A stretch of DNA of 64,000 nt from an uncultured Candidatus Saccharibacteria bacterium (GTDB taxonomy: Bacteria > Patescibacteriota > Minisyncoccia > Phycocordibacterales > Phycocordibacteraceae). Location of the stretch: contig CAZZAT010000002.1 of assembly GCA_964652615.1 (NCBI GenBank), positions 7,296 through 71,295 of the forward strand. The letters run 5' to 3'. The number at the start of each line of letters is the position of its first letter. Position 1 is the first letter of the stretch. Below the pieces are notes generated by a model. That model was not told the DNA's origin, did no database searches, and worked only from the letters and a program-made list of their open reading frames with translations. Shown one piece after another: positions 6,183 to 39,727 of this stretch. Made by a program: the position numbers and the translations under genes.

Positions 6183-6197
6183 TGGTACACTCTACAC

Positions 6198-6488
6198 ATG
6201 GATACCCAAACGCTCCTCTACTACGGCGCCCTCGCTCTCTGGAGTGCCTTTATTGCCTATACGATTCTCTTCTCCTTCCGAAAGCAACAGAAGGAGACCG
6301 TACAAGCGCCCCCTCCTGCACTAGCGCCTGTTTCTTATGACGTACCGCGCAGCGTACCTTCTGTATATGAACCCACCCCCATCCCCGAGCATGCACGAGC
6401 ACTTGCTACTGATGGCTTTCGAGCCTTTCAGACAGGAGATGAACTCACCGTCGAAGATATTGTAAAGGGGCTTTCAAGAAACGAATAA
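6198..6488 (+). CDS. Small membrane protein (hypothetical)
   Basis: Begins MDTQTLLYYGALALWSAFIAYTILF downstream of the terminator; the listed ORF start at 6126 would run through the terminator. One TM helix and a Pro-rich tail. Confidence 0.45.
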   Translation: MDTQTLLYYGALALWSAFIAYTILFSFRKQQKETVQAPPPALAPVSYDVPRSVPSVYEPTPIPEHARALATDGFRAFQTGDELTVEDIVKGLSRNE

Positions 6489-8072: not shown

Positions 8073-11000
8073 TTAGAGCGGCTTTACGTTCTCAAGGGCA
8101 AGCGATATTTCTCCATTTCTTGAGGAAACTTTTGCCTTTATCAGCATGCAATTGCCGGCCGATAGAAGCTTGGCATGTTCCTTGAAAAGGCGCGGGAAGG
8201 CCACTGCTTCAATAGATCCTGTCTTATCCTCAAGCTTTAGAAACGCCATCTTCTCGCCGCCCTTGGTGAGTATCGCGCGCGCCTCAGTAATAAGGACAGG
8301 GAGTATGAGTGTCATGCCGACCACCGGTTCTTCAAGGAGCGCTGCAATCGTCGTACCTGCTTTCGATGACTTCTCGGCATGCGCATCAAGCGGATGCCCG
8401 GAGACATAGATACCAAGCAGTTCTTTTTCCCATGCAAGCTTGTCGATAAGGGAGGTAACGGAGTCTGCAGAAGGCAGGGTAAGCGTGGGCGGGGCAACGG
8501 CGCCAAACAAAGAGTCTTGCGCTTGGGGTGCTGTTGCGTCCCGATGGAAAGTGAGCAGGGTCTCGATGTGCGCAATGAGATGCGAGCGTTCGCCAAGCGC
8601 ATCAAGCGCACCGCACTTAATCAAGGACTCAAGCGACTTCTTATTCAGATTCTTCGATCCGATACGAACGAGAAACTCCGAAAGGGAAGCAAACGGACCC
8701 CTCTCACGCTCTTGCATGATACTTTCTGCAATACCTTCGCCAAAGTTCTTAATTGAAGAGAGGCCGAAGCGTATCTTTGTTCCCGCATCAACGATGGTAA
8801 AGGTAGAGCGACTTTCGTTGACGTCTGGAGGAAGCACTGGTATCGAAAGGCGCTCGCATTCAGCGGCAAGCACGGCAATCTTCTCAACATCGCCCGCGTC
8901 TGCGGTAAGAAGAGCGGCCATGTATTCAACAGGGTAGTTGGCCTTCATATAGGAAGTCTGATACGCCACTTTGCCGTAGCTTGCTGCGTGTGAGTTGTGC
9001 ACAATGATGTCGTTTGCAATGAAGTTTTGAAGAACAGACACAGAGAGGTCGTAGGTCATTTCTTCTCCATCAGGTTCAATACTGCGGATTTCATCCCAAA
9101 ACACGTCGCTTCTTGCATGCTCGGCAAGCGTCTTTGAAGAGAGGGCTACAGCAGTTTTCTCAAGCACTGCACGCGTATATCCGCGCTTTCGTGTGTCTTC
9201 ATAGAAAAGGCGTTCTGAAAGATTTGTACATCGTGCAAGTTCTGCTATAGGCACTCCTTGCCGTGCAGCTTCTGCACGTATGTGTTCGAGTATCTGCGCC
9301 GGAACAGTATCTGCTGTTCCTCGTCCTCGTGCATTGGTCCGTACGGAACAAAGGCGCACCAAAAGTGCGAGCGAATCGCGTTTTGTTCCGATAAGGTGTG
9401 CGCCAGCAGTTTTTTCAAACCGTGTAAGATTTTCTATACCCGTAACGGTAACGGTATACCCGATACGCAAGCTCCCGCGATACCAAAATTGTTTACGATG
9501 TATCGTTGAAAGTATTGAAAGGCGAAGAAGTACATGCTGTACGTCGTGCGCAAGGTGCTTAGAGCTGGTCGCATAGAACACCTGCTGATTTTTGAGGGAA
9601 ATAGCTCCATCTCCCTGCCACATCTTCCCGAGCATGAGTGCAAGAGAATCGTTGTTCCAGGTAAGCACTGAATCAGGAATTTCTTTCTCTGTAGCGCGCT
9701 TCCCTCGAATACCAAGTCTCTCTGCCCATACAAGCATGCCATTTTGTTCTTTCTGGGTACGTCTGCCTACATATGCGCTTATAGCAGCTTTTGAACGATT
9801 TAAGGTCACTTGTGTGCCCGGGAAGCAGAGCGCTGCACGCGAGAAATCTGCAATCTCATTTTCCTGTGTCGAGTACATGTATAAACCATGCGGATGGCAC
9901 AGATTTCCCTCCGAGAGCAAATATCCAAGCGCTGCCGCTTCGTGTGCTGGGGCTGCACAGGATTCCGTTGGTTCGGGGAGATGGCGTGGAACAGCGATAC
10001 GTGCGCCAGCAGACAGCTCGCCAAGCGGGCGCCACCCTGCAAATGTGAGCAGAGGATGATTGTCTGTTGCACGAATAGTACGGCCGGAACGGGTGGTAAG
10101 GCGGAAGACACGCTTTACGCCATTTTCTCTAACCCAAGAGCCTTGTCCCTCTACAAGCTTCTGGCCTTTCGACAAAGCGAGTACGGGCACTTTACCTTTC
10201 GTTTCAATAAGGGTTTTCAGTGATGTGCGAGAACCTGTTTTTGGATTGTAAATACACGTATCACCCGTTAAGCACTTATTAAACCCATACGCTGCAAAGG
10301 GTTCGATAAGTTTCCAAAGCTCTTCCGCACGCTTTTGTGGGAGCTTTCCATGCTCTACAAAGCCACTAATAAGCTTCTCGCGTTCCGCTTCCATCACTTC
10401 CGGAATCTTCTTACCCATCGCTTTGCGGAGCATGTCTGCCTGAAGCCACGAATAGCCGCCAAGCGTAATCGAGGTCAAAAGCACGTCGTCTTGGTACACC
10501 AGAAGGCCGTAGGAAGCGTCGAGGTAGTCTTTCATGCGCTCATCCATATACGTAATGAGCTTCGGGTTTCGTTTGCGCTCGATGTACTGCGGGATGGTTT
10601 CGATAGGGCCGGGGCGATAGAGCGCCACCATAGCGTTGATGTCATGGATGGTTGTAGGCCGGAGTTCCTTCAGATACCGAGTCATGCCCGAGCCGTTTAA
10701 CTGGAAGGTGCCTTCTGTTTCTCCGCGCGCAAGCATGGCAAAAGTCTTCTCGTCATCAAGCGGCACGTTTTCAATATCAATGACGATGCCGCGCGTTTCT
10801 CGCACGCGCTCCACCGAGTCTGCGAGAATGGCGAGGTTCTTGATGCCAAGGAAGTCGAACTTCAAAAGGCCCGCATCCTCAATGGAATGCATATCGTACT
10901 GGGTGATAAGCTTGCCTGTTTTTTGGTCGGTCTGAAGCGAGGTCCACTCGGTCAGCGGCGTAGGGGAAATAACGACGCCAGCGGCATGTACGCCCGTGTG

Positions 11001-12491
11001 GCGGGCAGAACCTTCAATACGCCGTGCAAGATCAATAATTTCCTTCACATCATCATCTTCTTGGTAGAGCTGCTTCAACTCTTCTTCCATCGTAAGCGCG
11101 CGGTCAATAGTCATAGGGAATCCTTGAGAGCCAAGGGGAATGAGCTTTGCAATGCGATCTCCCGTGCCGTATGCGTGTCCCAAAGCGCGCGCAACGTCGC
11201 GCACTGCCGCTCGCGCAAGCATGGTTCCAAAGGTGCCTATCTGCGCAACGTGGTCTTCACCATACTTTCTTTTTGCGTACGCAATCATCTCGTCGCGCCT
11301 ATCGTCGGCGAAGTCCATGTCGATGTCGGGCGCTGACGGACGCTCGGGGTTCAAGAAGCGCTCAAACGGCAGCTTGTATTTCATCGGGTCTACGTTGGTA
11401 ATGCGGGCAAGATAGGTAACTAGCGATCCTGCAACCGAGCCGCGAATGGTGGTTAGGATGTGGTTTTCGTGAGCGAAGTTGAGAAGGTCGGATACAACAA
11501 GGAAGTAAGGCGCATAACCCTTTTGCTTGATGACCGAGAGCTCGTATTCAATGCGTTTTTCAACTTCCGGTGTCTTCTCCATGCCGCGTGCAGACAATCC
11601 TGCATAGGCTTTTGCCCGAAGTTCTTCGTCGTGGTCGCTAAATCCTTCAGAGACCGCAAGCGCAGGGAACACCCATTTGCCAAGTTCAAATTCAAGAGTG
11701 CAGCGCTCTGCTATTTCTCCTGAACGGTCGACTGCCTCTCCCATATCTTTGAACCATGCGCGCATATTCTTTTCGGATACAAACGAGAAGTCTTCCTTTT
11801 CGTTGTATCCTTCGCTTCCTTGCTGGATGCGCCGCAATACCGCACATGCTTCGCGGTCATCAGGGGAGAGGTAGTACACATCATGCTGCGCAACGAGCGG
11901 CACGCCGCTTTCTTGCGAGAGCTTCTTAATCTGTTCCATCTTTTGCGCGTGCCCTTCTACCGATGGGTGGTGCGTAATTTCAAGGAAGACATTTTCTTTT
12001 CCGAAGATGCTTTGCCAATGAGCAAGAGCGGCCGCAGCTCCTTTTGCGTCGCCTCGTGAAAGCAATTGTGACGTGTCTCCTGCAAAAGAAGGAATGAGCG
12101 CAATGAGTCCTTTCGCATGTTTTTGCAGAAGCTCGCGGTCCATGCGCGGGCGCTCAAAAAAGCCATCGGTATACGAAGCAGTCACAAGCGCAAGCAAGTT
12201 CTTATACCCTTCCTGATTTTCAACAAGAAGCACGAGGCGCGAGCGCTTTTCATCTCGGTCGTGCACTAATCGTGATGCGGGAGCGATATAGGCATCAACA
12301 CCAAGCACTGCTTTAATGCCCGCCTTCTTCGCTTCTTTATAAAACTCAATTGCGCCATGCAGGTTGCCTTCATCGGTTAGGGCAAGCGCTTCCATGCCTT
12401 CCTTTTTTGCAGCCTCGACAAGCTCAGGCACTTTCGGAAGGGCTTTTAAGAAAGAGTAGTGGCTGTGGGTGTGTAGGTGAACGAATGCCAT
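8073..12491 (-). CDS. dnaE: DNA polymerase III alpha subunit (DnaE) interrupted by an in-frame intein
   Basis: An N-terminal PHP domain (MAFVHLHTHSHYSF), a polymerase core and a C-terminal OB fold. The conserved GFNK|SHAASY motif is split by a 427-aa insertion. Confidence 0.9.
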   Translation of the reverse strand: MAFVHLHTHSHYSFLKALPKVPELVEAAKKEGMEALALTDEGNLHGAIEFYKEAKKAGIKAVLGVDAYIAPASRLVHDRDEKRSRLVLLVENQEGYKNLLALVTASYTDGFFERPRMDRELLQKHAKGLIALIPSFAGDTSQLLSRGDAKGAAAALAHWQSIFGKENVFLEITHHPSVEGHAQKMEQIKKLSQESGVPLVAQHDVYYLSPDDREACAVLRRIQQGSEGYNEKEDFSFVSEKNMRAWFKDMGEAVDRSGEIAERCTLEFELGKWVFPALAVSEGFSDHDEELRAKAYAGLSARGMEKTPEVEKRIEYELSVIKQKGYAPYFLVVSDLLNFAHENHILTTIRGSVAGSLVTYLARITNVDPMKYKLPFERFLNPERPSAPDIDMDFADDRRDEMIAYAKRKYGEDHVAQIGTFGTMLARAAVRDVARALGHAYGTGDRIAKLIPLGSQGFPMTIDRALTMEEELKQLYQEDDDVKEIIDLARRIEGSARHTGVHAAGVVISPTPLTEWTSLQTDQKTGKLITQYDMHSIEDAGLLKFDFLGIKNLAILADSVERVRETRGIVIDIENVPLDDEKTFAMLARGETEGTFQLNGSGMTRYLKELRPTTIHDINAMVALYRPGPIETIPQYIERKRNPKLITYMDERMKDYLDASYGLLVYQDDVLLTSITLGGYSWLQADMLRKAMGKKIPEVMEAEREKLISGFVEHGKLPQKRAEELWKLIEPFAAYGFNKCLTGDTCIYNPKTGSRTSLKTLIETKGKVPVLALSKGQKLVEGQGSWVRENGVKRVFRLTTRSGRTIRATDNHPLLTFAGWRPLGELSAGARIAVPRHLPEPTESCAAPAHEAAALGYLLSEGNLCHPHGLYMYSTQENEIADFSRAALCFPGTQVTLNRSKAAISAYVGRRTQKEQNGMLVWAERLGIRGKRATEKEIPDSVLTWNNDSLALMLGKMWQGDGAISLKNQQVFYATSSKHLAHDVQHVLLRLSILSTIHRKQFWYRGSLRIGYTVTVTGIENLTRFEKTAGAHLIGTKRDSLALLVRLCSVRTNARGRGTADTVPAQILEHIRAEAARQGVPIAELARCTNLSERLFYEDTRKRGYTRAVLEKTAVALSSKTLAEHARSDVFWDEIRSIEPDGEEMTYDLSVSVLQNFIANDIIVHNSHAASYGKVAYQTSYMKANYPVEYMAALLTADAGDVEKIAVLAAECERLSIPVLPPDVNESRSTFTIVDAGTKIRFGLSSIKNFGEGIAESIMQERERGPFASLSEFLVRIGSKNLNKKSLESLIKCGALDALGERSHLIAHIETLLTFHRDATAPQAQDSLFGAVAPPTLTLPSADSVTSLIDKLAWEKELLGIYVSGHPLDAHAEKSSKAGTTIAALLEEPVVGMTLILPVLITEARAILTKGGEKMAFLKLEDKTGSIEAVAFPRLFKEHAKLLSAGNCMLIKAKVSSRNGEISLALENVKPL
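8994..10274 (-). mobile_element. Intein (427 aa) with LAGLIDADG-like homing endonuclease domain in dnaE
   Basis: Spans aa 740-1166 of DnaE. It starts with Cys1 (CLTGDTCIY, block A), has a TxxH block B (TDNH), LAGLIDADG-like motifs (LGYLLSEGNL and LALMLGKMWQGDGAI), and ends in VHN followed by a Ser +1 extein residue. Codons verified: 10272-10274 revcomp tgc (Cys) and 8994-8996 revcomp aac (Asn). Confidence 0.8.
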
Positions 12492-24150: not shown

Positions 24151-24179
24151 TTGACTGAAACCGCTTATTTTGGTACTCT
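24151..24179 (+). promoter_or_regulatory. Putative rpsP promoter
   Basis: TTGACT, a 17-nt spacer, then TACTCT, ending 9 nt before the rpsP ATG (short or absent leader). Confidence 0.35.
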
Positions 24180-24187
24180 CGCGGGAC

Positions 24188-24646
24188 ATGTTGATGATTC
24201 GCTTCCAGAGGATAGGCCGCAAGAACGACCCGGCTTTTCGCATACTCGTCCTCGAAAAGACCTCAAGCCCTAAAGCCGGCACCTATGTCGAGCAGGTCGG
24301 CACCTATAACCCAAAGACCAAAGACTTCAGCGCAAACGCCGAGGCTATTAAAGGCTGGATAGCAAAAGGCGCACAGCTCTCTCCTTCACTCCAGAACCTC
24401 CTCATTCGCAAGGGCGTTATCGAAGGTAAGAAGAGTGCGTCGGTCGTGAAGAAGAAGAATCTTGAGAAGAACATTGCAAAGAAGGCCGCTGAAGAGGCTG
24501 CGGCAAAGGAAGCTGCAGAGAAAGCAGCGGCTGATGCGGCAGCTGTTGAGGTAGTAGCAGAGGCTCCTGCAGAAGAGCCTGTAGCTGAAGCTCCGGCTGA
24601 AGAGGTTGCAGAAGTGAAGGAAGAAGAGGTTCCTGCTGCTGCGTAG
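24188..24646 (+). CDS. rpsP: Ribosomal protein bS16 with an Ala/Glu/Lys-rich C-terminal extension
   Basis: MLMIRFQRIGRKNDPAFRI matches the bS16 N-terminus; the listed ORF start at 24170 is a TTG, whereas an ATG sits at 24188. Confidence 0.85.
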   Translation: MLMIRFQRIGRKNDPAFRILVLEKTSSPKAGTYVEQVGTYNPKTKDFSANAEAIKGWIAKGAQLSPSLQNLLIRKGVIEGKKSASVVKKKNLEKNIAKKAAEEAAAKEAAEKAAADAAAVEVVAEAPAEEPVAEAPAEEVAEVKEEEVPAAA

Positions 24647-24697: not shown

Positions 24698-25012
24698 ATG
24701 AATGAAAAACATCCAGAAGAACTCTTTCTTGAATACGTGGTAACGGCACTCGTTGACCATCCGGAAGACATTTCCATTACACGCACCGTCGACAATCTCG
24801 GCGTTCTCCTTACCCTTACGGTGCATAAAGATGACATGGGCAAGGTGATAGGACGCGGCGGTAAGCTTGCAACGCAGGCAATACGCCCTCTTCTTTCTGC
24901 TGTTGGCATGAAGCACAATGCGCGCGTTTCTTTGAAGATAAACGAGCCTATGGGCGGGAAGCGTGAACAGGAATTCAAGAGTCTTGAAGAAACGCTCGAA
25001 AGCCTGAACTAA
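24698..25012 (+). CDS. KH-domain RNA-binding protein (KhpA/YlqC-like)
   Basis: Has the GRGGK...AIR KH motif and sits in the conserved position between rpsP and trmD. Confidence 0.8.
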   Translation: MNEKHPEELFLEYVVTALVDHPEDISITRTVDNLGVLLTLTVHKDDMGKVIGRGGKLATQAIRPLLSAVGMKHNARVSLKINEPMGGKREQEFKSLEETLESLN

Positions 25013-25668
25013 TGCTTCGCTTTCACCTCATCACCCTTTTCCCTGAAGCGTGCGACGCCTATCTAAACGCATCCATACTGGGGCGCGCCAGAAAGAACAA
25101 GAAGATTAGCGTCTCGTATCAGTCTCCGCGCGACTATGTCGATAACAAGTGGGGGAAGGTAGATGAGCGTCCCTATGGCGGCGGTCCTGGCATGGTGATG
25201 CAAGCACTCCCTATCGTACGCGCTGCAAAGAAAGCGGTAGGAAGAAAGAAAGGGAAGAAGGCGTTTGTTTGGTTCTCGCCTTCTGCTCCTGCTTTTACCA
25301 ACAAGGAAGCAGACAAGCTCGCAGCGTTTGATGACATCGTTCTCATCTGCGGCCGCTATGAAGGTATCGATGAGCGTGCAGCAAAAATACTAAAGACCAT
25401 GGGCACTCTGAAGCGGTATTCGGTGGGCGAGGCAACTCTGACGGGTGCTGAAGTTCCTGCTATGGCACTCGTGGATGCGGTTTCTCGCAGACTTACCGGA
25501 GTCCTTGGAAAGGATGAGTCAGTAGAAGAGCGCAGAGTTTCAAGCGGAGAAGTATATACGCGCCCTGAAGAAATCGTATTTGAAAAGAAGAAGTATCGCG
25601 TGCCGAAAGTGCTCATTTCAGGACATCAGGCGAAGATAGAGGAGTGGAAGAAGGGGAGGAAGAGCTAA
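25012..25668 (+). CDS. trmD: tRNA (guanine37-N1)-methyltransferase
   Basis: ITLFPE, PYGGGPGMVM, LICGRYEGIDER and the SPOUT knot motifs; its start overlaps the upstream stop (TAATG). Confidence 0.9.
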   Translation: MLRFHLITLFPEACDAYLNASILGRARKNKKISVSYQSPRDYVDNKWGKVDERPYGGGPGMVMQALPIVRAAKKAVGRKKGKKAFVWFSPSAPAFTNKEADKLAAFDDIVLICGRYEGIDERAAKILKTMGTLKRYSVGEATLTGAEVPAMALVDAVSRRLTGVLGKDESVEERRVSSGEVYTRPEEIVFEKKKYRVPKVLISGHQAKIEEWKKGRKS

Positions 25669-25687
25669 CGTATTTCAAATAGAAAGA

Positions 25688-25714
25688 GGGGGCAGGTTTA
25701 TCCTGCCCCCTCAC
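25688..25714 (-). terminator. Hairpin terminator (T-tract on the minus strand) downstream of the Cys-rich peptide ORF
   Basis: gagggggcagg-tttat-cctgccccctc; a tttctattt run follows it on the minus strand. Confidence 0.5.
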
Positions 25715-25734
25715 TGGGTGTAGTCGAGGTTCGA

Positions 25735-25854
25735 CTACTTCTTTTTATTGCACTTCGAGCACTGTCCGCAGTGCCCGCAACCGCTACCGCGGTGCCCACC
25801 AGAGCCGTGTTTTGACCCTGGGTGATTGCATTTGCGGCCGCTACCTTTACCCAT
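25735..25854 (-). CDS. 39-aa Cys/His/Gly-rich peptide (MGKGSGRKCNHPGSKHGSGGHRGSGCGHCGQCSKCNKKK), not in the ORF track
   Basis: An ATG preceded by an AAGGA-like SD; it has 6 Cys and 4 His, including a CxxCxxCxxC run; its own terminator follows. Translated codon by codon from the sequence. Confidence 0.35.
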   Translation of the reverse strand: MGKGSGRKCNHPGSKHGSGGHRGSGCGHCGQCSKCNKKK

Positions 25855-25987
25855 AGGAACATTCCTTCTTTCTCGTATCCCTCGCGCTCAACTGTACCAT
25901 TAGAAATATGGAAAGCAAGGAGCTGTGTGTAGGTGTATCAAAACACAACTACAAAAACAGGACGTCCAAAGACGTCCTGTTCCAGTT

Positions 25988-26662
25988 CTACGCAATTTTC
26001 AGCGTCTCTTTATTGTAAGCATCCGCTCTTTCTCGCGCCGCTTTTCCTGCACGCTCGGAGCGAGCAAAATGCTCCTCGATAAAAGCTCTGCCAGCTTTAC
26101 GGCCAAGCCACCACATAAGAGCATCCACAGCTACTCGGTCACGAAGAGTCGTTTCTTCAGGGTCGTGCCAGCAAGAATTGAACGGAAGAACCGTTCCTGT
26201 ATGGCCATCCTTGCACTTTTCACTACATATGTGCGTGAAGTGCATAACCATGTCATGAGATTCCCGCTTAAACAGGAGCGAGAACACTCTTTCAGGATGT
26301 GCTTCTTTAGAGCGGTACGCATCCAAAAGAAAACTGTTCCCGATATTCGTGCCAAGCCACTGCACTGTTGTCGACACGAGAGCGATGTCTCTGCTGTTGT
26401 ACGGCCGACCTTTGAATTCGAAGTCAGGCTTGAAGCGTCCCGTAAGCGTTCCCATTCCTGGGAGGATGCGGTGGATAATAACTTCAAGAGGGGTCGGTTC
26501 GGGAGCGTCAACGCGATGCGCGCGCTCCCACTGCTTTGCGATAACTCGCTCCGCATTGAACCCTCCGTATTCGGGTTTAGGTTCAAAGGCAAGTCTCTCC
26601 ACGTAGCGGGGAAAGACGAAACCATAGGGAGCGAGCGATTTGGTCGCTAGCGGATGTCGCAT
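25988..26662 (-). CDS. Hypothetical protein (224 aa)
   Basis: ORF with His/Cys-containing motifs (HFTHICSEKCKDGH); no family recognised. Confidence 0.5.
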   Translation of the reverse strand: MRHPLATKSLAPYGFVFPRYVERLAFEPKPEYGGFNAERVIAKQWERAHRVDAPEPTPLEVIIHRILPGMGTLTGRFKPDFEFKGRPYNSRDIALVSTTVQWLGTNIGNSFLLDAYRSKEAHPERVFSLLFKRESHDMVMHFTHICSEKCKDGHTGTVLPFNSCWHDPEETTLRDRVAVDALMWWLGRKAGRAFIEEHFARSERAGKAARERADAYNKETLKIA

Positions 26663-26798
26663 GTGAATGTTCCTTTCTGCTTATCCGGCGGGACTATAGC
26701 ACAGAACAAAAAAGAGGCTATTGTACCAGCAAAAAAGCAAGTATTGCAGAACACACTCCTTTCTGTACAGTGCGGGAGGGAAACAAAAGGAGAAGACA

Positions 26799-27116
26799 AT
26801 GGAAGAGCCTGAAGTTCTATCCGATGAGCGGTTTGCCGAGTTGTTTGGTTTTTGTCCTGTACGTCACACGAAAGAGCAAAAAGAAAAGGCCAGAGAGGTT
26901 AACTTACTTCTTGACGCTGTCTCTGATGAGCTTTCGATACCTGATCGATACTTTTTCGAGATTACTAGAAGGGAGGAAGAATACACTCAGTTTCTTTCTC
27001 GCGTGATCAATTGCCCCGAAGACATTATACGGAGGGCGCAGCATATGCTGAAACCTGATTCTCCAGAAAGACGAAGCCTGGCGCTCATACAAGCCTTTCG
27101 GAAGGGCAAGCGATAG
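26799..27116 (+). CDS. Hypothetical protein (105 aa)
   Basis: The ATG at 26799 follows AAAGGAGAAG; no domain recognised. Confidence 0.5.
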   Translation: MEEPEVLSDERFAELFGFCPVRHTKEQKEKAREVNLLLDAVSDELSIPDRYFFEITRREEEYTQFLSRVINCPEDIIRRAQHMLKPDSPERRSLALIQAFRKGKR

Positions 27117-27120
27117 GTAA

Positions 27121-27151
27121 AGAACCAGCGTTAAAACGCTGGTTCTTTTCA
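27121..27151 (+). terminator. Intrinsic terminator
   Basis: aagaaccagcg-ttaaaa-cgctggttctt followed by ttc. Confidence 0.65.
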
Positions 27152-27167
27152 TATCCCCAACTCTCCT

Positions 27168-27196
27168 TGACGCCCTCGTATAGTGGGCATATACTC
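27168..27196 (+). promoter_or_regulatory. Putative rpoBC promoter
   Basis: TTGACG, a 17-nt spacer, then TATACT; a structured leader of about 150 nt lies between it and the rpoB ATG. Confidence 0.45.
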
Positions 27197-27351
27197 CTCC
27201 ATACCAGAACAGATTGAGTGGCGGCGGCACTCTGGCGGGCGACATACGAAGATTTTTAGAAGCGTCCCGGGAAACCGGAACGCGGCTCGTTGCGCACGAG
27301 CCCATTTGGCGTTTCCATGCCTCACTATTACTACACTGACGTATTCACCAC

Positions 27352-30300
27352 ATGAAGACCAACAAAGCCCTCCCGCAGAAGACCTTTGCTGCGTACCAGA
27401 AGCCCCGTGTTGCGTTCCCTGACCTCGTTGCCCACCAGCGCGATTCATTTGAATGGCTTGTGAAGGAGGGCCTTGCCGAACTCTTTAAGGAGTTCTCTCC
27501 AATACCAGACTACTCTGGAAAGAAGTTCGAGCTTCGCTTCGATGGCTTTGAGCTTGGTGAGCCTAAATGCGATATAGACTTCGCACGCGACAACATGCGC
27601 ACCTACGAAGTGCCGGTGAAGGCGCAAGTGACGCTCTTGAACAAGACGCTTGGAACCGAGAAGTCGCAGGACCTCTTCCTCGCTGATCTTCCTATGATGA
27701 CCCCGCACGGGTCCTTTATCGTATCTGGCGTTGAGCGCGCCATCGTCCCCCAGCTTGCGCGAAGCTTCGGGGCGTTCTTCATTTCTGAAGATATAAAAGG
27801 CAAGCAGTTCTTCGGTGCAAAAATCATTCCCGCACGCGGCGTCTGGATTGAAATAGACTCTGAAGCAGACGGCGCTATCTTCGTGAAGATAGACCGCAAG
27901 CGCAAGTTCCCAATCACCAACCTTCTCTCGGTATTTGGCGCAGGCGTTGGCGAAGAGCTTGCAAAGCACTTCAAGGGCGATAAGGTTGCGCTCGCAGCGC
28001 TTGCCGCAACCCGTGCGCACGACACAACTGAATCAGTCGAAGATGCATACGTTGAAATACACCGCCGCATGCGCGATGGGGATCTTGCTACCGCAGACAA
28101 CGCAAAGTCGTACGTTAAACAGCTCTTTGCTGCTGAACGCTATGACCTTTCTAAAGTAGGTCGCCACCGCTTGAACCAGCGCTTTGCGCTTCCTACCGAT
28201 GCAAAGGCTCTCAAAGAGCGCGCACTCACTCTCCCTGACCTTATCCGCATCGTCGCTGAAATCGCACGCTTGAACGTAACGCCAAACTCGGTTCCAGACG
28301 ATATCGACCACCTTGGCTTCCGCCGCGTTCGTTTCGTCGGGGAACTCCTACAGGCCCGCATGCGTGTGGGTATGTCGCGCATGAAGCGCAATATCCAAGA
28401 TCGCATGTCGACTATTGAGAGCGAGACCGCGCTCCCTATGGCGCTCGTGAACCCGCGTCCGCTTCAGGCATCTATTCGCGAATTCTTCACCGCAAACCAG
28501 CTCTCGCAGTTCATGGATCAGCAGAACATCCTTGCTGAACTTGAAAGCATGCGCACCCTCTCCGCTCTCGGCCCTGGAGGCCTTACCCGTGAGCGCGCCG
28601 GCTTTGAGGTGCGCGACGTGCATCCGTCGCATTACGGACGCCTCTGTCCTATTCACACACCTGAAGGAGCGAACATCGGCCTTATCCTTCGCATGGCGCT
28701 TCACTGCCGCACTAACGAATTCGGCGTCATCGAAACTCCCTACGCTGTCGTAAAGAAAGGCGTGGTAACAGAGGAAGTGGTGCACTTGAACGCTCTTGAA
28801 GAGGAGAACCAGATCATCGTGCACGCTGCAACGCCAGTAGATGAGAAGGGACGCATCGTTCCTGAAATGGTGGAGGCGCGCCGCAACGGTGAGCCAGCAG
28901 TTGTCTCACGCGATGAGGTTACCCTTATCGACGCTTCGACATACCAGATGTTCTCTGCTGCAACTGCAATGATTCCGTTCGTTGACCACGACGACGCAAA
29001 CCGCGCACTCATGGGTTCAAACATGCAGAAGCAGGCAACTCCTGTGCTTATTCCTGAAGCACCGCTTGTTGCTACGGGCATCGAAGAGCATGCAGCACGC
29101 AACACTGGCCGCCTCATCCTTGCTGAAGAAGCAGGCGACGTCACGTATGTTGATGCAAAGAAGATTATCGTCACGAACAAGGATAATAAGAAGAGGGAGT
29201 ACCGCCTTCAGGAACTCATTCAGACCAACCAGAACTCCGCACAGCGCCAGCGTCCGGCTGTCTCTACCGGCGACAAGGTGAAGAAGGGTGAAGTCTTGGC
29301 GGACGCTTCAAGTTCCGCACATGGTCAGATGGCGCTCGGGCAAAACGTGCGCGTCGCCTTCATGAGCTGGTCTGGCGCAAACTACGAAGACGCCATCATC
29401 GTCTCCGAGCGCCTTGTGCAGCAGTCTAAGTTCACCACTATCCATATCGAAGACTTCGAGTGCGCCGTGCGCGACACCAAGCTCGGTCCTGAAGTAACAA
29501 CGCACGACATTCCAAACGTCGGAGAACTTCGTTTGAAGAACCTTGATGAGGATGGCGTCATTCGTATCGGTGCAGAAGTGCGCCCTGGCGACATTCTTGT
29601 CGGAAAGGTAACGCCAAAGGGCGAGACCCAGCTTACTCCTGAAGAGCGCCTCCTTCGCTCTATCTTCGGCGATAAGGCAAAGGACGTGAAAGATACCTCG
29701 CTTCGCATGGAAGGCGGCAAGCGTGGTCGTGTCATTGGCGTGAAGGTTTTCTCACGCGAACAGGGCGATCAGCTTGAAAGCGGCATCATCAAGAAGATTG
29801 TCGTAACAGTTGCGCAGGTACGAAACGTCTCCGTGGGAGACAAGCTTGCCGGACGCCACGGAAACAAGGGCGTTATCTCCCGCGTGCTTCCTGCTGAAGA
29901 GATGCCATACGACAAGGATGGTAATCCGGTTGACGTTATCTTGACGCCCCTTGGCGTGCCGTCTCGTATGAACCTTGGTCAGATTCTTGAAATGCATCTT
30001 GGTCTTGCAGCAAATGCGCTTAACTATCAGGCAGTGGTTCCGCCGTTTGCAGGCGCAACCTCTGATGAAATTCGCGATGAGCTTGTTGCGGCGGGCTTTG
30101 ACCGTTCCGGCAAGATGCAGCTCTTTGACGGCCGTACCGGCGAAGCATTCGCACAGCCTATTTCAGTCGGATACATGTACATCTTGAAACTCCATCACAT
30201 GGTGGAGGACAAGATCCATATGCGCTCCATTGGTCCGTACTCGCTCATCACCCAGCAGCCGCTTGGCGGAAAAGCACAAAACGGTGGTCAGCGCTTTGGA

Positions 30301-37757: not shown

Positions 37758-38837
37758 ATGCAAACAGCACCCGTACGAAACCTACACAAAACCATGCGCG
37801 TCACAGATGAAATCCTTGAACGGTACCGCACGCAAAGCGCGGCGTTCATGTCGCCCGACCAAGCCGGCGCCCGCCGGTTCTACCGCTCGCAGCACCGCAC
37901 CGAAATAGCGGTGTTGAAGTGCATGGACGGCAGGCTCAACTTGGCGCTCATGACGAATACGCCGCCCGGCATTCTCTCGCCGTTTCGCACGATGGGAGGA
38001 AAGTTCAACATGGGGTGGCCGTGGTTTGGCGACCTCATCGATGAATGGGTGAAGCATGCGTGGGAGAAGCAGCGCAGCGCGGTCATTCTGGTGACCTACC
38101 ACTTTTCGCGCTCCCATAATTCGCATCTCGGATGCAAAGGATGGGGGTACGACCAAGCGGCTGCACAGGATGCGGCGCATGCGCTCGTGAACGACATTGG
38201 GCGCATCTATGGCGTCGGGCACGATGGCGTTCGCGCTATCGTAGTCGGTATTGAAACGGATGAAGACGCACTCGTTTTTCACGGAAATGGAACGCTCGAC
38301 TTGGCACAAGAGGCGGACACCGCTGAATTTGAGCTTCTCGAGAAGTTTCGCGTTCTTTTCCCTGGCATGGGACTTCAAGTTCTTTCCGATGTGTTTGAAC
38401 TCGTGAAAGGCAATATTGCGCATATCGCCGAGATTCGCGCCAAAAAGCGCGAACCTATCGACATGGACCATCGCGAAAACATCATCGGGGTGGGCCGCGG
38501 TTTCGATTCGCTCCATATGCCCAACCGAGCGCTCATCATCGGCCCCTTCGATCATGGGTGGCCAAACGAAGTGGCAGTCGCAGGAAAGATTGTTAAAAGC
38601 AATCTTGAAGCGGGCCGCATCAACGTCGAGGACGGCTTCCTTTTGCTGTGCTCGTCTGCGTTTCGCAAGGACCGCGGCACGGGCCTTGAACGGCACCGCT
38701 CTGAATTCCGAGCGAAGGAAATTGCGAAGTACGCTCAAAAGGCGCTTACCGAGGCAGTTCCCGATCTTACATTCGATGTCGTTATCGGCACTGTCGATAT
38801 GGATACTCGCGAACTCTACGTTCTCGAGCGGTCATAG
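37758..38837 (+). CDS. Hypothetical protein (359 aa) with a CxDxR ... HxxC motif pair
   Basis: VLKCMDGR at aa 52-59 and SHLGCKG at aa 122-128 resemble the zinc-site spacing of beta-carbonic anhydrase, but overall similarity is not established. Confidence 0.5.
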   Translation: MQTAPVRNLHKTMRVTDEILERYRTQSAAFMSPDQAGARRFYRSQHRTEIAVLKCMDGRLNLALMTNTPPGILSPFRTMGGKFNMGWPWFGDLIDEWVKHAWEKQRSAVILVTYHFSRSHNSHLGCKGWGYDQAAAQDAAHALVNDIGRIYGVGHDGVRAIVVGIETDEDALVFHGNGTLDLAQEADTAEFELLEKFRVLFPGMGLQVLSDVFELVKGNIAHIAEIRAKKREPIDMDHRENIIGVGRGFDSLHMPNRALIIGPFDHGWPNEVAVAGKIVKSNLEAGRINVEDGFLLLCSSAFRKDRGTGLERHRSEFRAKEIAKYAQKALTEAVPDLTFDVVIGTVDMDTRELYVLERS

Positions 38838-38902
38838 GCGGCAGAGCACTTCATTTGGAGCTGGCACCTTGGTGCCAGCTCTTTTTGCTACACTATGGCC
38901 GT

Positions 38903-39727
38903 ATGCCGCGACGCAAGAAGAAATATCCCATAACGCACTGGAGCTACTCCTCCTTGATGGCGTATTTGCGCAACCCTCTGGCGTGGTATAAGCACTACGT
39001 TCTTAAGATATACGACACGCCGCGCGGTCCCTCTGCCATTGTGGGCGTTGCAGGCCATCTTGCGCTCGAGCATTTCTATACCGGCTTTTCAAAAGAGCAG
39101 GCAATTGAGCAGGGGCTCGTCTATCTTCGCAGCGTTCCTGATTTTGAAATAAACTTCGGTGTTGCTTCAACGCGCCTCGCTAAAAAAGCAAAGCGCCTTT
39201 CCATGGAGCGCGACTATCTTCAAGCCATCGGCTTCTATCTCGCTCGTCCGCCGCGTCATCGCGTGCTTGCTGCAGAAGCGAAGGGACTTGCTAAAGTACA
39301 AGGCCTTCCGCTTCAGGTCAAAGCGGTCGCAGATCTTGTCGTCGAGTCGAAAGGAAACAAGGGATGCGTTGATGTTGTGGATCATAAGTTTGTCGAGACG
39401 TTTAGTAAGGCAAAGGGCGCAAAACCACTCTTCATGCTCCAAGCAGTCTTTAACTACTATGTCGTCTCCTCACTGTACGGGAAGCCGGTGAAGCGCTTTA
39501 TGGTCTATGAGTGCAAGAAGTCCAAAAACAAAGACGGGAAGCCCCAGCTTCGAAAGTACGTCCTCCACTATGACGACATGGCAGATGCCTTTGACGTCTT
39601 TCACCGGCTCGTGAAGGAAGCGAGCGCGGAAATAGCAACGCGCCGCACGTATCTTCCTAACCCTTCAGACATGTTTGAAGGAGAAGATTCGTTTGAACTC
39701 TACCGTCTTCGACTTACCGAAGACTAA
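38903..39727 (+). CDS. Putative PD-(D/E)xK nuclease of the Cas4/RecB-like family, without the C-terminal Cys cluster
   Basis: An N-terminal SYSSLxxYxxNPxxWY motif (cf. RecB-family SxSxLxxYxxCP); candidate motif II ADLVVE and motif III VVDHK; no C-terminal CxxC...C. Confidence 0.45.
   Translation: MPRRKKKYPITHWSYSSLMAYLRNPLAWYKHYVLKIYDTPRGPSAIVGVAGHLALEHFYTGFSKEQAIEQGLVYLRSVPDFEINFGVASTRLAKKAKRLSMERDYLQAIGFYLARPPRHRVLAAEAKGLAKVQGLPLQVKAVADLVVESKGNKGCVDVVDHKFVETFSKAKGAKPLFMLQAVFNYYVVSSLYGKPVKRFMVYECKKSKNKDGKPQLRKYVLHYDDMADAFDVFHRLVKEASAEIATRRTYLPNPSDMFEGEDSFELYRLRLTED

Follow-up and report, generated by a model that had tools for sequence, protein, structure and literature searches.

The short interval between trmD [25012..25668 (+); Pfam tRNA_m1G_MT] and a gene for a 224-aa protein without a Pfam domain [25988..26662 (-)] raises the question whether a gene for a very small Cys- and His-rich peptide lies between them, as was proposed in an initial annotation of this 64,000-nucleotide stretch of DNA (referred to here as the window). 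The open reading frame concerned (frame A) is located on the minus strand at 25735..25854, starts with ATG, ends with TAG and encodes 39 amino acids (MGKGSGRKCNHPGSKHGSGGHRGSGCGHCGQCSKCNKKK); its coordinates, start, stop and translation all proved correct. Besides Met1, the predicted peptide (3.94 kDa, pI about 10, net charge about +9) consists of 11 Gly, 7 Lys, 5 Ser, 5 Cys, 4 His, 2 Arg, 2 Asn, 1 Pro and 1 Gln, and after Met1 it contains no acidic, aliphatic (A/V/L/I) or aromatic (F/W/Y) residues. Six Cys residues had been reported, and recounting gave five (positions 9, 26, 29, 32, and 35). The four His residues (positions 11, 16, 21, and 28) and the CxxCxxCxxC run (residues 26-35) are present as described. 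Cys and His together provide nine potential metal ligands in 39 residues, and H11, H16, H21, and C26 follow one another at a spacing of five residues.

The window and the fetched loci (1.59 Mb of DNA) contain 15,662 ORFs of at least 30 aa, and of these frame A alone has no hydrophobic residue, the next-lowest hydrophobic content being 6%. The CxxCxxCxxC run by itself is not rare in six-frame translations, in which five other cases, mostly CC-rich junk, were found in about 0.7 Mb (the first 89 loci), and an open frame of 39 codons is not significant by itself either. The Ser residues in the GSG motifs are encoded by both AGC and TCT, which hints at selection acting on the peptide. An AlphaFold model of the peptide showed no secondary structure and had a pLDDT of 55; as a hydrophobic core is absent, the free (apo) peptide is expected to be disordered and the pLDDT to be low. 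No signal peptide was detected in the peptide, which is therefore predicted to be cytoplasmic, and no tandem repeats were found.

A Shine-Dalgarno (SD)-like AAGGA [25863..25867 (-)] is located 8 nt before the ATG of frame A, which is the first ATG after the upstream stop. The layout AAGGA-N8-ATG is identical for the 224-aa gene, and AAGGAGG-type sites are found upstream of a subset of the genes in the window. At the other end, an intrinsic terminator [25676..25712 (-)] begins 22 nt past the stop codon of frame A and consists of an 11-bp stem (25712..25686) with 9 G-C pairs, followed by TTTCTATTT (-25.2 kcal/mol, z = -4.7). Both the SD and the terminator with its T-tract on the minus strand, which the initial annotation had assigned to the peptide gene, are thus borne out. 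A second hairpin with a T-tract lies on the plus strand [25720..25748 (+), hairpin 25720..25738; -11.2 kcal/mol, z = -4.0] and, in our assignment, is probably the terminator of trmD. This element extends over the 3' end of frame A, covering the stop codon and the four codons before it, and the complement of its T-tract encodes the C-terminal NKKK. The 224-aa gene has its own terminator [25947..25987 (-); -22.5 kcal/mol, a 12-bp inner stem followed by UUUUUG], so that the peptide ORF does not simply share its transcript. With about 89% of this genome coding, the 210 nt that separate two convergent terminators suggest that something functional is located there.

A candidate promoter for this unit is an extended -10 motif, TGGTACAGT [TGnTACAnT; 25891..25899 (-)], located 37 nt upstream of the peptide ATG. 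Five copies of the pattern TGNTACANT are present in the 64-kb window, against 3.6 expected, so that the total is not enriched, and the argument for a promoter rests on the placement of the copies and not on their count. All five copies are located upstream of gene starts and oriented toward them, and none was found in the coding sequence of the window. With roughly 11% of the window being non-coding (as estimated from a crude gene map), it would be very unlikely for all five copies to be in promoter positions by chance. The fourth and fifth copies precede the 224-aa gene and the peptide ORF. For the latter, TTGCTT [25913..25918 (-)], 16 nt upstream of the -10 hexamer, was read from the sequence as a possible -35 element; it agrees with TTGACA at four of six positions and scores under the threshold of the promoter scan. 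The transcript predicted for the small unit runs from about 25884 to 25676 and is about 209 nt long. The other three copies [6183-6200 (+), 38886-38905 (+), and 42302-42284 (-)] appear to be of a leaderless type: each is separated by 6-8 nt from an in-frame ATG, the genes concerned being, respectively, an ORF at 6198 (+), a PD-(D/E)XK nuclease gene (38903 +) and the gene for HisRS (42286 -). Two of these three are preceded by the terminator of the upstream gene. Judged from this arrangement, the mRNAs of these three genes are probably leaderless, and the start of the PD-(D/E)XK gene is probably 38903 and not the TTG at 38855.

In public gene calls, the DNA of frame A is read in another frame. 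Both NCBI and Logan (P0009) call an overlapping ORF of 54 aa [frame B, MFLWVKVAAANAITQGQNTALVGTAVAVAGTADSARSAIKRSSRTSTTPSEGAG; 25698..25862 (-)], and an exact look-up of the frame A peptide in the protein collection returned no entry. The description of the peptide gene as unannotated thus applies to frame A itself, but not to the locus, at which frame B has been called. The region of frame A displays a period-3 signal (chi2 = 23.2) that was reached by none of 5000 dinucleotide-preserving shuffles, and no signal was found at periods 2, 4, and 5. This value exceeds that of 96% of same-length pieces of real genes and belongs to the top 1% of the intervals scored in stretches left uncovered by the crude gene map, among which the region ranks second of 20. 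Four other such stretches have a comparable period-3 signal (chi2 21-25); those around 12520, 43003, 53920, and 63439 (chi2 22-25) may be uncalled small genes or may reflect misplaced gene ends in the crude longest-ORF map.

To compare the two frames, we used a synonymous-codon score, on which amino-acid composition has no influence. This score is +0.177 ± 0.146 per codon in real genes, versus -0.21 and -0.15 in open shadow frames. For frame A it amounts to +0.014 per codon, the best value of the six frames and about 1.1 sd under the mean of real genes. The score of frame B (-0.279 per codon) is about 3 sd under that of real genes and resembles that of a shadow frame, and frame B repeatedly uses AGT, the codon of 6% of the Ser residues encoded by the genome. 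For the codons of frame A, the likelihood ratio of a real gene versus a shadow frame is about 1.6, and the codon evidence favouring frame A is weak. General (full) codon log-odds are -9.2 bits for frame A versus -0.25 bits for frame B, the negative value for frame A being caused by a peptide made almost wholly of Gly, Cys, His, Ser, and Lys. The codons of frame A have no T at position 2, and because of this frame B is free of stops across the overlap. None of the 38 codons of frame B in the overlap begins with T, which has a probability of about 0.003 for a normal protein of this genome (T-initial fraction 0.145).

The alternative that frame B (MFLWVKVAAANAITQ...) is the genuine gene, with the Cys/His peptide as its shadow, has in its favour the choice of frame B by the gene callers of NCBI and Logan, log-odds that are less negative than those of frame A and an enrichment of G in first codon positions like that of ordinary genes. 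Its shadow-like score with recurring rare AGT codons and its lack of T-initial codons argue against it, as does its position in the unit: the ATG of frame B directly abuts the SD and its TAA stop lies within the loop of the terminator hairpin, whereas frame A has optimal SD spacing and a stop ahead of the hairpin. Furthermore, neither a transmembrane segment (maximum KD19 1.05) nor a Pfam domain was found in frame B, and the search for homologues returned frame B alone. We consider it very unlikely that frame B is the gene; judging by these features, it is probably a gene-caller artefact resulting from a miscalled shadow frame. Frame A is the better coding candidate, with modest positive support for frame A alone.

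To place the locus among related genomes, trmD was used as an anchor. The DNA belongs to a Parcubacteria/Paceibacterota bacterium near Candidatus Adlerbacteria, the best matches to trmD (64-73% identity) being in MAGs with these names, and synteny was compared for 80 loci. More than 20 relatives share an invariant gene order, RNase R-rpsP-KH-trmD...rpoB. The interval from trmD to rpoB (25669-27351 in the window, in which rpoB starts at 27352), however, ranges from 164 nt to 2.6 kb (loci L010-L048) and contains different genes in each genome; by eye, these include an MsrA/MsrB-like gene in L026 and a PemK-type toxin-like gene in L016. In this clade, the trmD-rpoB gap forms a hypervariable slot for cargo genes. 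The frame A ORF is absent from this slot in more than 20 related genomes, and a blastn search with 25669-25950 gave no nucleotide similarity to relatives, while a control segment of trmD matched more than 30 of them. Conservation of the DNA as a noncoding element without the ORF, which the initial annotation had named as the pattern contrary to a peptide gene, is not what these genomes display: the DNA itself is absent from them. An exact look-up of neighbouring proteins returned further copies of the locus (SRR15237804 and SRR15237806, runs of one study); all of these are 100% identical and therefore offer no substitutions for a dN/dS-type comparison.

Conserved synteny of the peptide ORF with the 224-aa gene, another expectation of the initial annotation, was not observed either. 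The family of the 224-aa protein is very small (8 homologues; 8 clusters), and the genes of these homologues are found in five distinct contexts with no such ORF nearby. The family has an invariant H144-x-C146-x3-C150 motif as well as many other invariant residues, and the terminator hairpin of the 224-aa gene is weakly conserved after the homologue in L002. A scan of the genome collection with the 224-aa protein returned nothing. The AlphaFold model of this protein is mostly helical (pLDDT 70) and has no fold match in PDB, and for these reasons its structure is uninformative on the peptide. For an ORF on the plus strand further along the slot, which is listed from TTG 26721 (131 aa), a more probable start is ATG 26799 (105 aa; 26799-27116), which is preceded by an AAGGAG site. 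The Logan gene calls agree with this start, and no family match was found for the 105-aa ORF.

The profile and tblastn searches that had been advised for the peptide did not reveal any relatives. An hmmscan against Pfam-A (E ≤ 1) gave no family, PF02069 (SmtA/BmtA) included, and a search of NCBIfam, the successor of the TIGRFAM models, gave no match (E ≤ 1; TIGR03601 and the SCIFF model included). The PDB sequences contain no match to the peptide. A word-indexed search of 5.8 billion protein clusters, for which the query was padded with one Lys, yielded no candidate, and a full phmmer search of 1.84 billion representatives yielded no match at E ≤ 0.001. No match was found by tblastn in phages and plasmids, although a large part of the query may have been hidden from this search by the low-complexity filter. 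The degenerate DNA pattern for G-C-G-H-C-G-x-C-x-x-C was found in at least 120 stretches of metagenome contigs and five times in viral contigs, in all cases in Cys-rich ORFs unrelated to the peptide. At the RNA level, Rfam 15 gave no match in the window at gathering thresholds, the best sub-threshold matches in 25600-26050 (E ≥ 0.57) being on terminator hairpins, and no tRNA or tmRNA was found. By these searches, the peptide is a lineage-restricted orphan.

The pattern scan of the metagenome also returned an ORF of about 79 aa (KGDYHMCWSWGNGCGHCGGCGGCGNNGWGWNSCGNNGRNSYRRGFNDG), which among the matches listed was present in L091, L094, L098, about 30 others and the viral contig L214. It is found mostly in contigs labelled human gut, is rich in Cys, Gly, Asn, and Trp, is highly conserved across samples and is unrelated to the frame A peptide. 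Its product could be a bacteriocin-like or modified peptide.

The sequence signals, the frame comparison and the lack of homologues are observations, and transcription, translation and metal binding are inferences. We tentatively propose that frame A is a real, lineage-restricted gene for an orphan metallothionein-like metal-binding microprotein, an explanation that we hold as plausible rather than probable. The usual extended -10 promoter of this genome would drive a transcript of about 209 nt, with the SD in a 5' UTR of about 30 nt and the strong intrinsic terminator at its end. This transcript would encode the 39-residue peptide, predicted to be cytoplasmic and to be disordered when metal-free, which would offer nine soft or borderline ligands (C9, H11, H16, H21, C26, H28, C29, C32, and C35). 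Most likely, the peptide would chelate between one and three ions of Zn(II) or Cu(I) (or Ni/Co), and in the manner of a metallothionein it may buffer, store or chaperone metal. One Zn(II) or a small Cu(I) cluster could be bound by the Cys4 run and a further ion by the His pentad, and the Lys-rich ends may also keep the peptide on nucleic acid or ribosomes. The public gene callers would have picked the wrong frame owing to the atypical amino-acid composition of the peptide.

The composition of the predicted peptide fits that of a metal-binding peptide. Its Cys content of 13% (5/39; 23% including His) is low for a metallothionein, as metallothioneins usually contain 15-30% Cys in CxC/CxxC arrangements. 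The broad compositional definition of metallothioneins as proteins of low mass without aromatics covers the peptide, at 3.94 kDa and without F, W or Y. As in SmtA/BmtA (PF02069) and MymT of Mycobacterium, a small size and a predicted cytoplasmic location are combined with Cys and His ligands and the lack of an aromatic core. Classical metallothioneins have Lys and Ser beside Cys, and the peptide shares with bacterial metallothioneins the CxxC/CxC-type clusters and Lys, Ser, and Gly beside Cys; like them, it would chelate metal through thiolate and imidazole groups. It differs from SmtA in having 5 Cys (13%) versus 9-10, in lacking a PF02069 match and zinc-finger-like fold elements, in being far more basic and in having no relatives; no smtB/arsR-type regulator adjoining the peptide gene was seen among the neighbouring genes. 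Hpn and Hpn-like of Helicobacter are a second comparison, being likewise tiny, cytoplasmic and lineage-restricted low-complexity peptides that are rich in His, Gly, and Cys and have no stable fold. Hpn is thought to store Ni/Zn, consists of His for about half and is acidic or neutral, whereas the peptide has 4 His, a strongly basic character and a Cys4 run and has no known sequence similarity to Hpn. The haloarchaeal CPxCG zinc-finger microproteins resemble the peptide in being smaller than 70 aa, in having paired CxxC as the sole recognisable feature and in often being unannotated. In CPxCG proteins two separated pairs with ordinary residues between them form a zinc ribbon, whereas the four Cys of the run in the peptide are contiguous and set in a Gly/Ser/Lys background.

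Several other explanations of the locus have to be weighed against a metal-binding microprotein. Frame A could be a chance open frame in the spacer between the convergent terminators of the 224-aa gene, the small unit and trmD, perhaps transcribed but not under selection; a young proto-gene fits the same description. The lack of conservation of both peptide and DNA in relatives and the lack of homologues anywhere are consistent with this, as are the probability of about 0.15 per frame of finding 39 open codons by chance, the negative general codon log-odds, the occurrence of one CxxCxxCxxC per 64-kb window, which is not far above the six-frame background, and a C-terminal NKKK that merely reflects the T-tract of the probable trmD terminator. 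However, chance would have to bring together a promoter motif, a properly spaced SD, the first ATG, a stop before the terminator, period-3 composition and a unique amino-acid composition, and a spacer of 210 nt is long for a streamlined genome. We regard a chance frame as rather unlikely. The same transcript might instead act as a small regulatory RNA of about 200 nt, non-coding or dual-function, with an incidental ORF. The unit is sRNA-sized and has a promoter motif and a terminator, and the predicted transcript is highly structured (z = -5.5), the ORF portion alone, with its perfect GCACUG/CAGUGC hairpin, having z = -2.5. The folding energy of the transcript, however, comes largely from the two terminator hairpins, Rfam gave no match even at permissive thresholds and the DNA is not conserved in relatives. 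Moreover, a regulatory RNA leaves unexplained both the period-3 composition and the accessible, correctly spaced SD-ATG followed by an ORF that fills the transcript. A regulatory RNA is unlikely on this evidence.

Two further alternatives accept that the peptide is made and assign it another role. A basic zinc-knuckle microprotein with a structural role, resembling a nucleocapsid or a small ribosomal protein, bound to RNA, DNA or the ribosome and not acting as a metal buffer, would agree with a net charge of about +9, with the absence of acidic residues, with a Cys4 cluster that could fold around one Zn and with a gene located between the rpsP-KH-trmD and rpoBC operons. It is difficult to reconcile with relatives that have the same operons but not the ORF, and no match to a zinc-ribbon ribosomal protein or a knuckle family was found. 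The spacing in zinc ribbons and CCHC knuckles is also unlike the tandem CxxC of the peptide. We consider this role quite unlikely. The initial annotation had also mentioned a precursor of a modified peptide; ribosomally made, it could be of the thiazole/oxazole heterocycloanthracin-like or the radical-SAM thioether type with the maturation genes elsewhere in the genome. The peptide resembles heterocycloanthracin/TOMM (TIGR03601) precursors in its Cys-Xaa-Xaa periodicity, in its Gly/Ser/Cys-rich low complexity and in being mis-called by gene finders. Distant and unannotated precursors have a precedent in a Cys-Xaa-Xaa repeat bacteriocin precursor that is encoded 1.27 Mb from its maturation operon and was missed in public annotation (Haft 2009, PMC2674419). 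Such precursors have 50-70 residues, and 88 in the case of BA_2677 (Haft 2009, PMC2674419), versus 39 in the peptide, which has four repeat units only, shows no match to the leader region, comes from a different phylum and is encoded in a small Parcubacteria genome. Its N-terminal half is rich in GSG and His, without a recognisable hydrophobic leader, versus the conserved leader of TOMM precursors. No cyclodehydratase, dehydrogenase, radical-SAM, protease or exporter gene is present among the Pfam-annotated genes within about 20 kb, and none of the TOMM cyclodehydratase, dehydrogenase, and scaffold genes is among the Pfam-scanned genes of the 64-kb window. The SCIFF/ranthipeptide type found no support either, as the model did not match and the flanking genes have no radical-SAM domain. 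With neither a nearby maturase nor a leader nor a family match (NCBIfam, E ≤ 1), a modified-peptide precursor is highly improbable. We reject a leader peptide or attenuator, as no gene follows the terminator on that strand, and an amphipathic antimicrobial peptide, as hydrophobic residues are absent.

A more specific version of the metal-binding explanation would be that the peptide is a recently born or very fast-evolving minimal metallothionein (Cys5His4), the gene for which would be strain-specific cargo of the hypervariable trmD-rpoB slot in an ultra-small genome of the Parcubacteria and would be systematically mis-framed by standard gene finders; we regard this as doubtful. If it were true, more metal-binding microproteins may hide behind shadow-frame calls of 'hypothetical protein'. 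Provided that the peptide is produced and binds metal, it would rank among the smallest metal-buffering proteins known and would be, to our knowledge, the first in a bacterium of the Candidate Phyla Radiation (CPR); a literature search on CPR metallothioneins and small Cys-rich proteins returned no papers. In addition, it would give an actual example of a microprotein rich in Cys, His and Gly whose shadow frame is annotated by composition-driven gene callers. As a single orphan locus, its present value is that of a cheap and well-defined candidate for experiments and not that of a finding.

Three other genes elsewhere in the window were noted. The gene for ribosomal protein S16 [24170-24646 (+)] encodes a long, low-complexity C-terminal tail that is rich in Ala and Glu (AAEEAAAKEAAEKAAADAAAVEVV...), the S16 product being 150 aa according to the Logan gene calls. 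Part of a protein of 359 aa [37758-38837 (+)] weakly matches (E = 5e-7) the catalytic domain of CsoSCA, the carboxysome-shell carbonic anhydrase, and a match of this type is unexpected in a Parcubacteria genome. The gene for DnaE, the DNA polymerase III alpha subunit [8073-12491 (-)], contains an intein with a LAGLIDADG homing-endonuclease domain.
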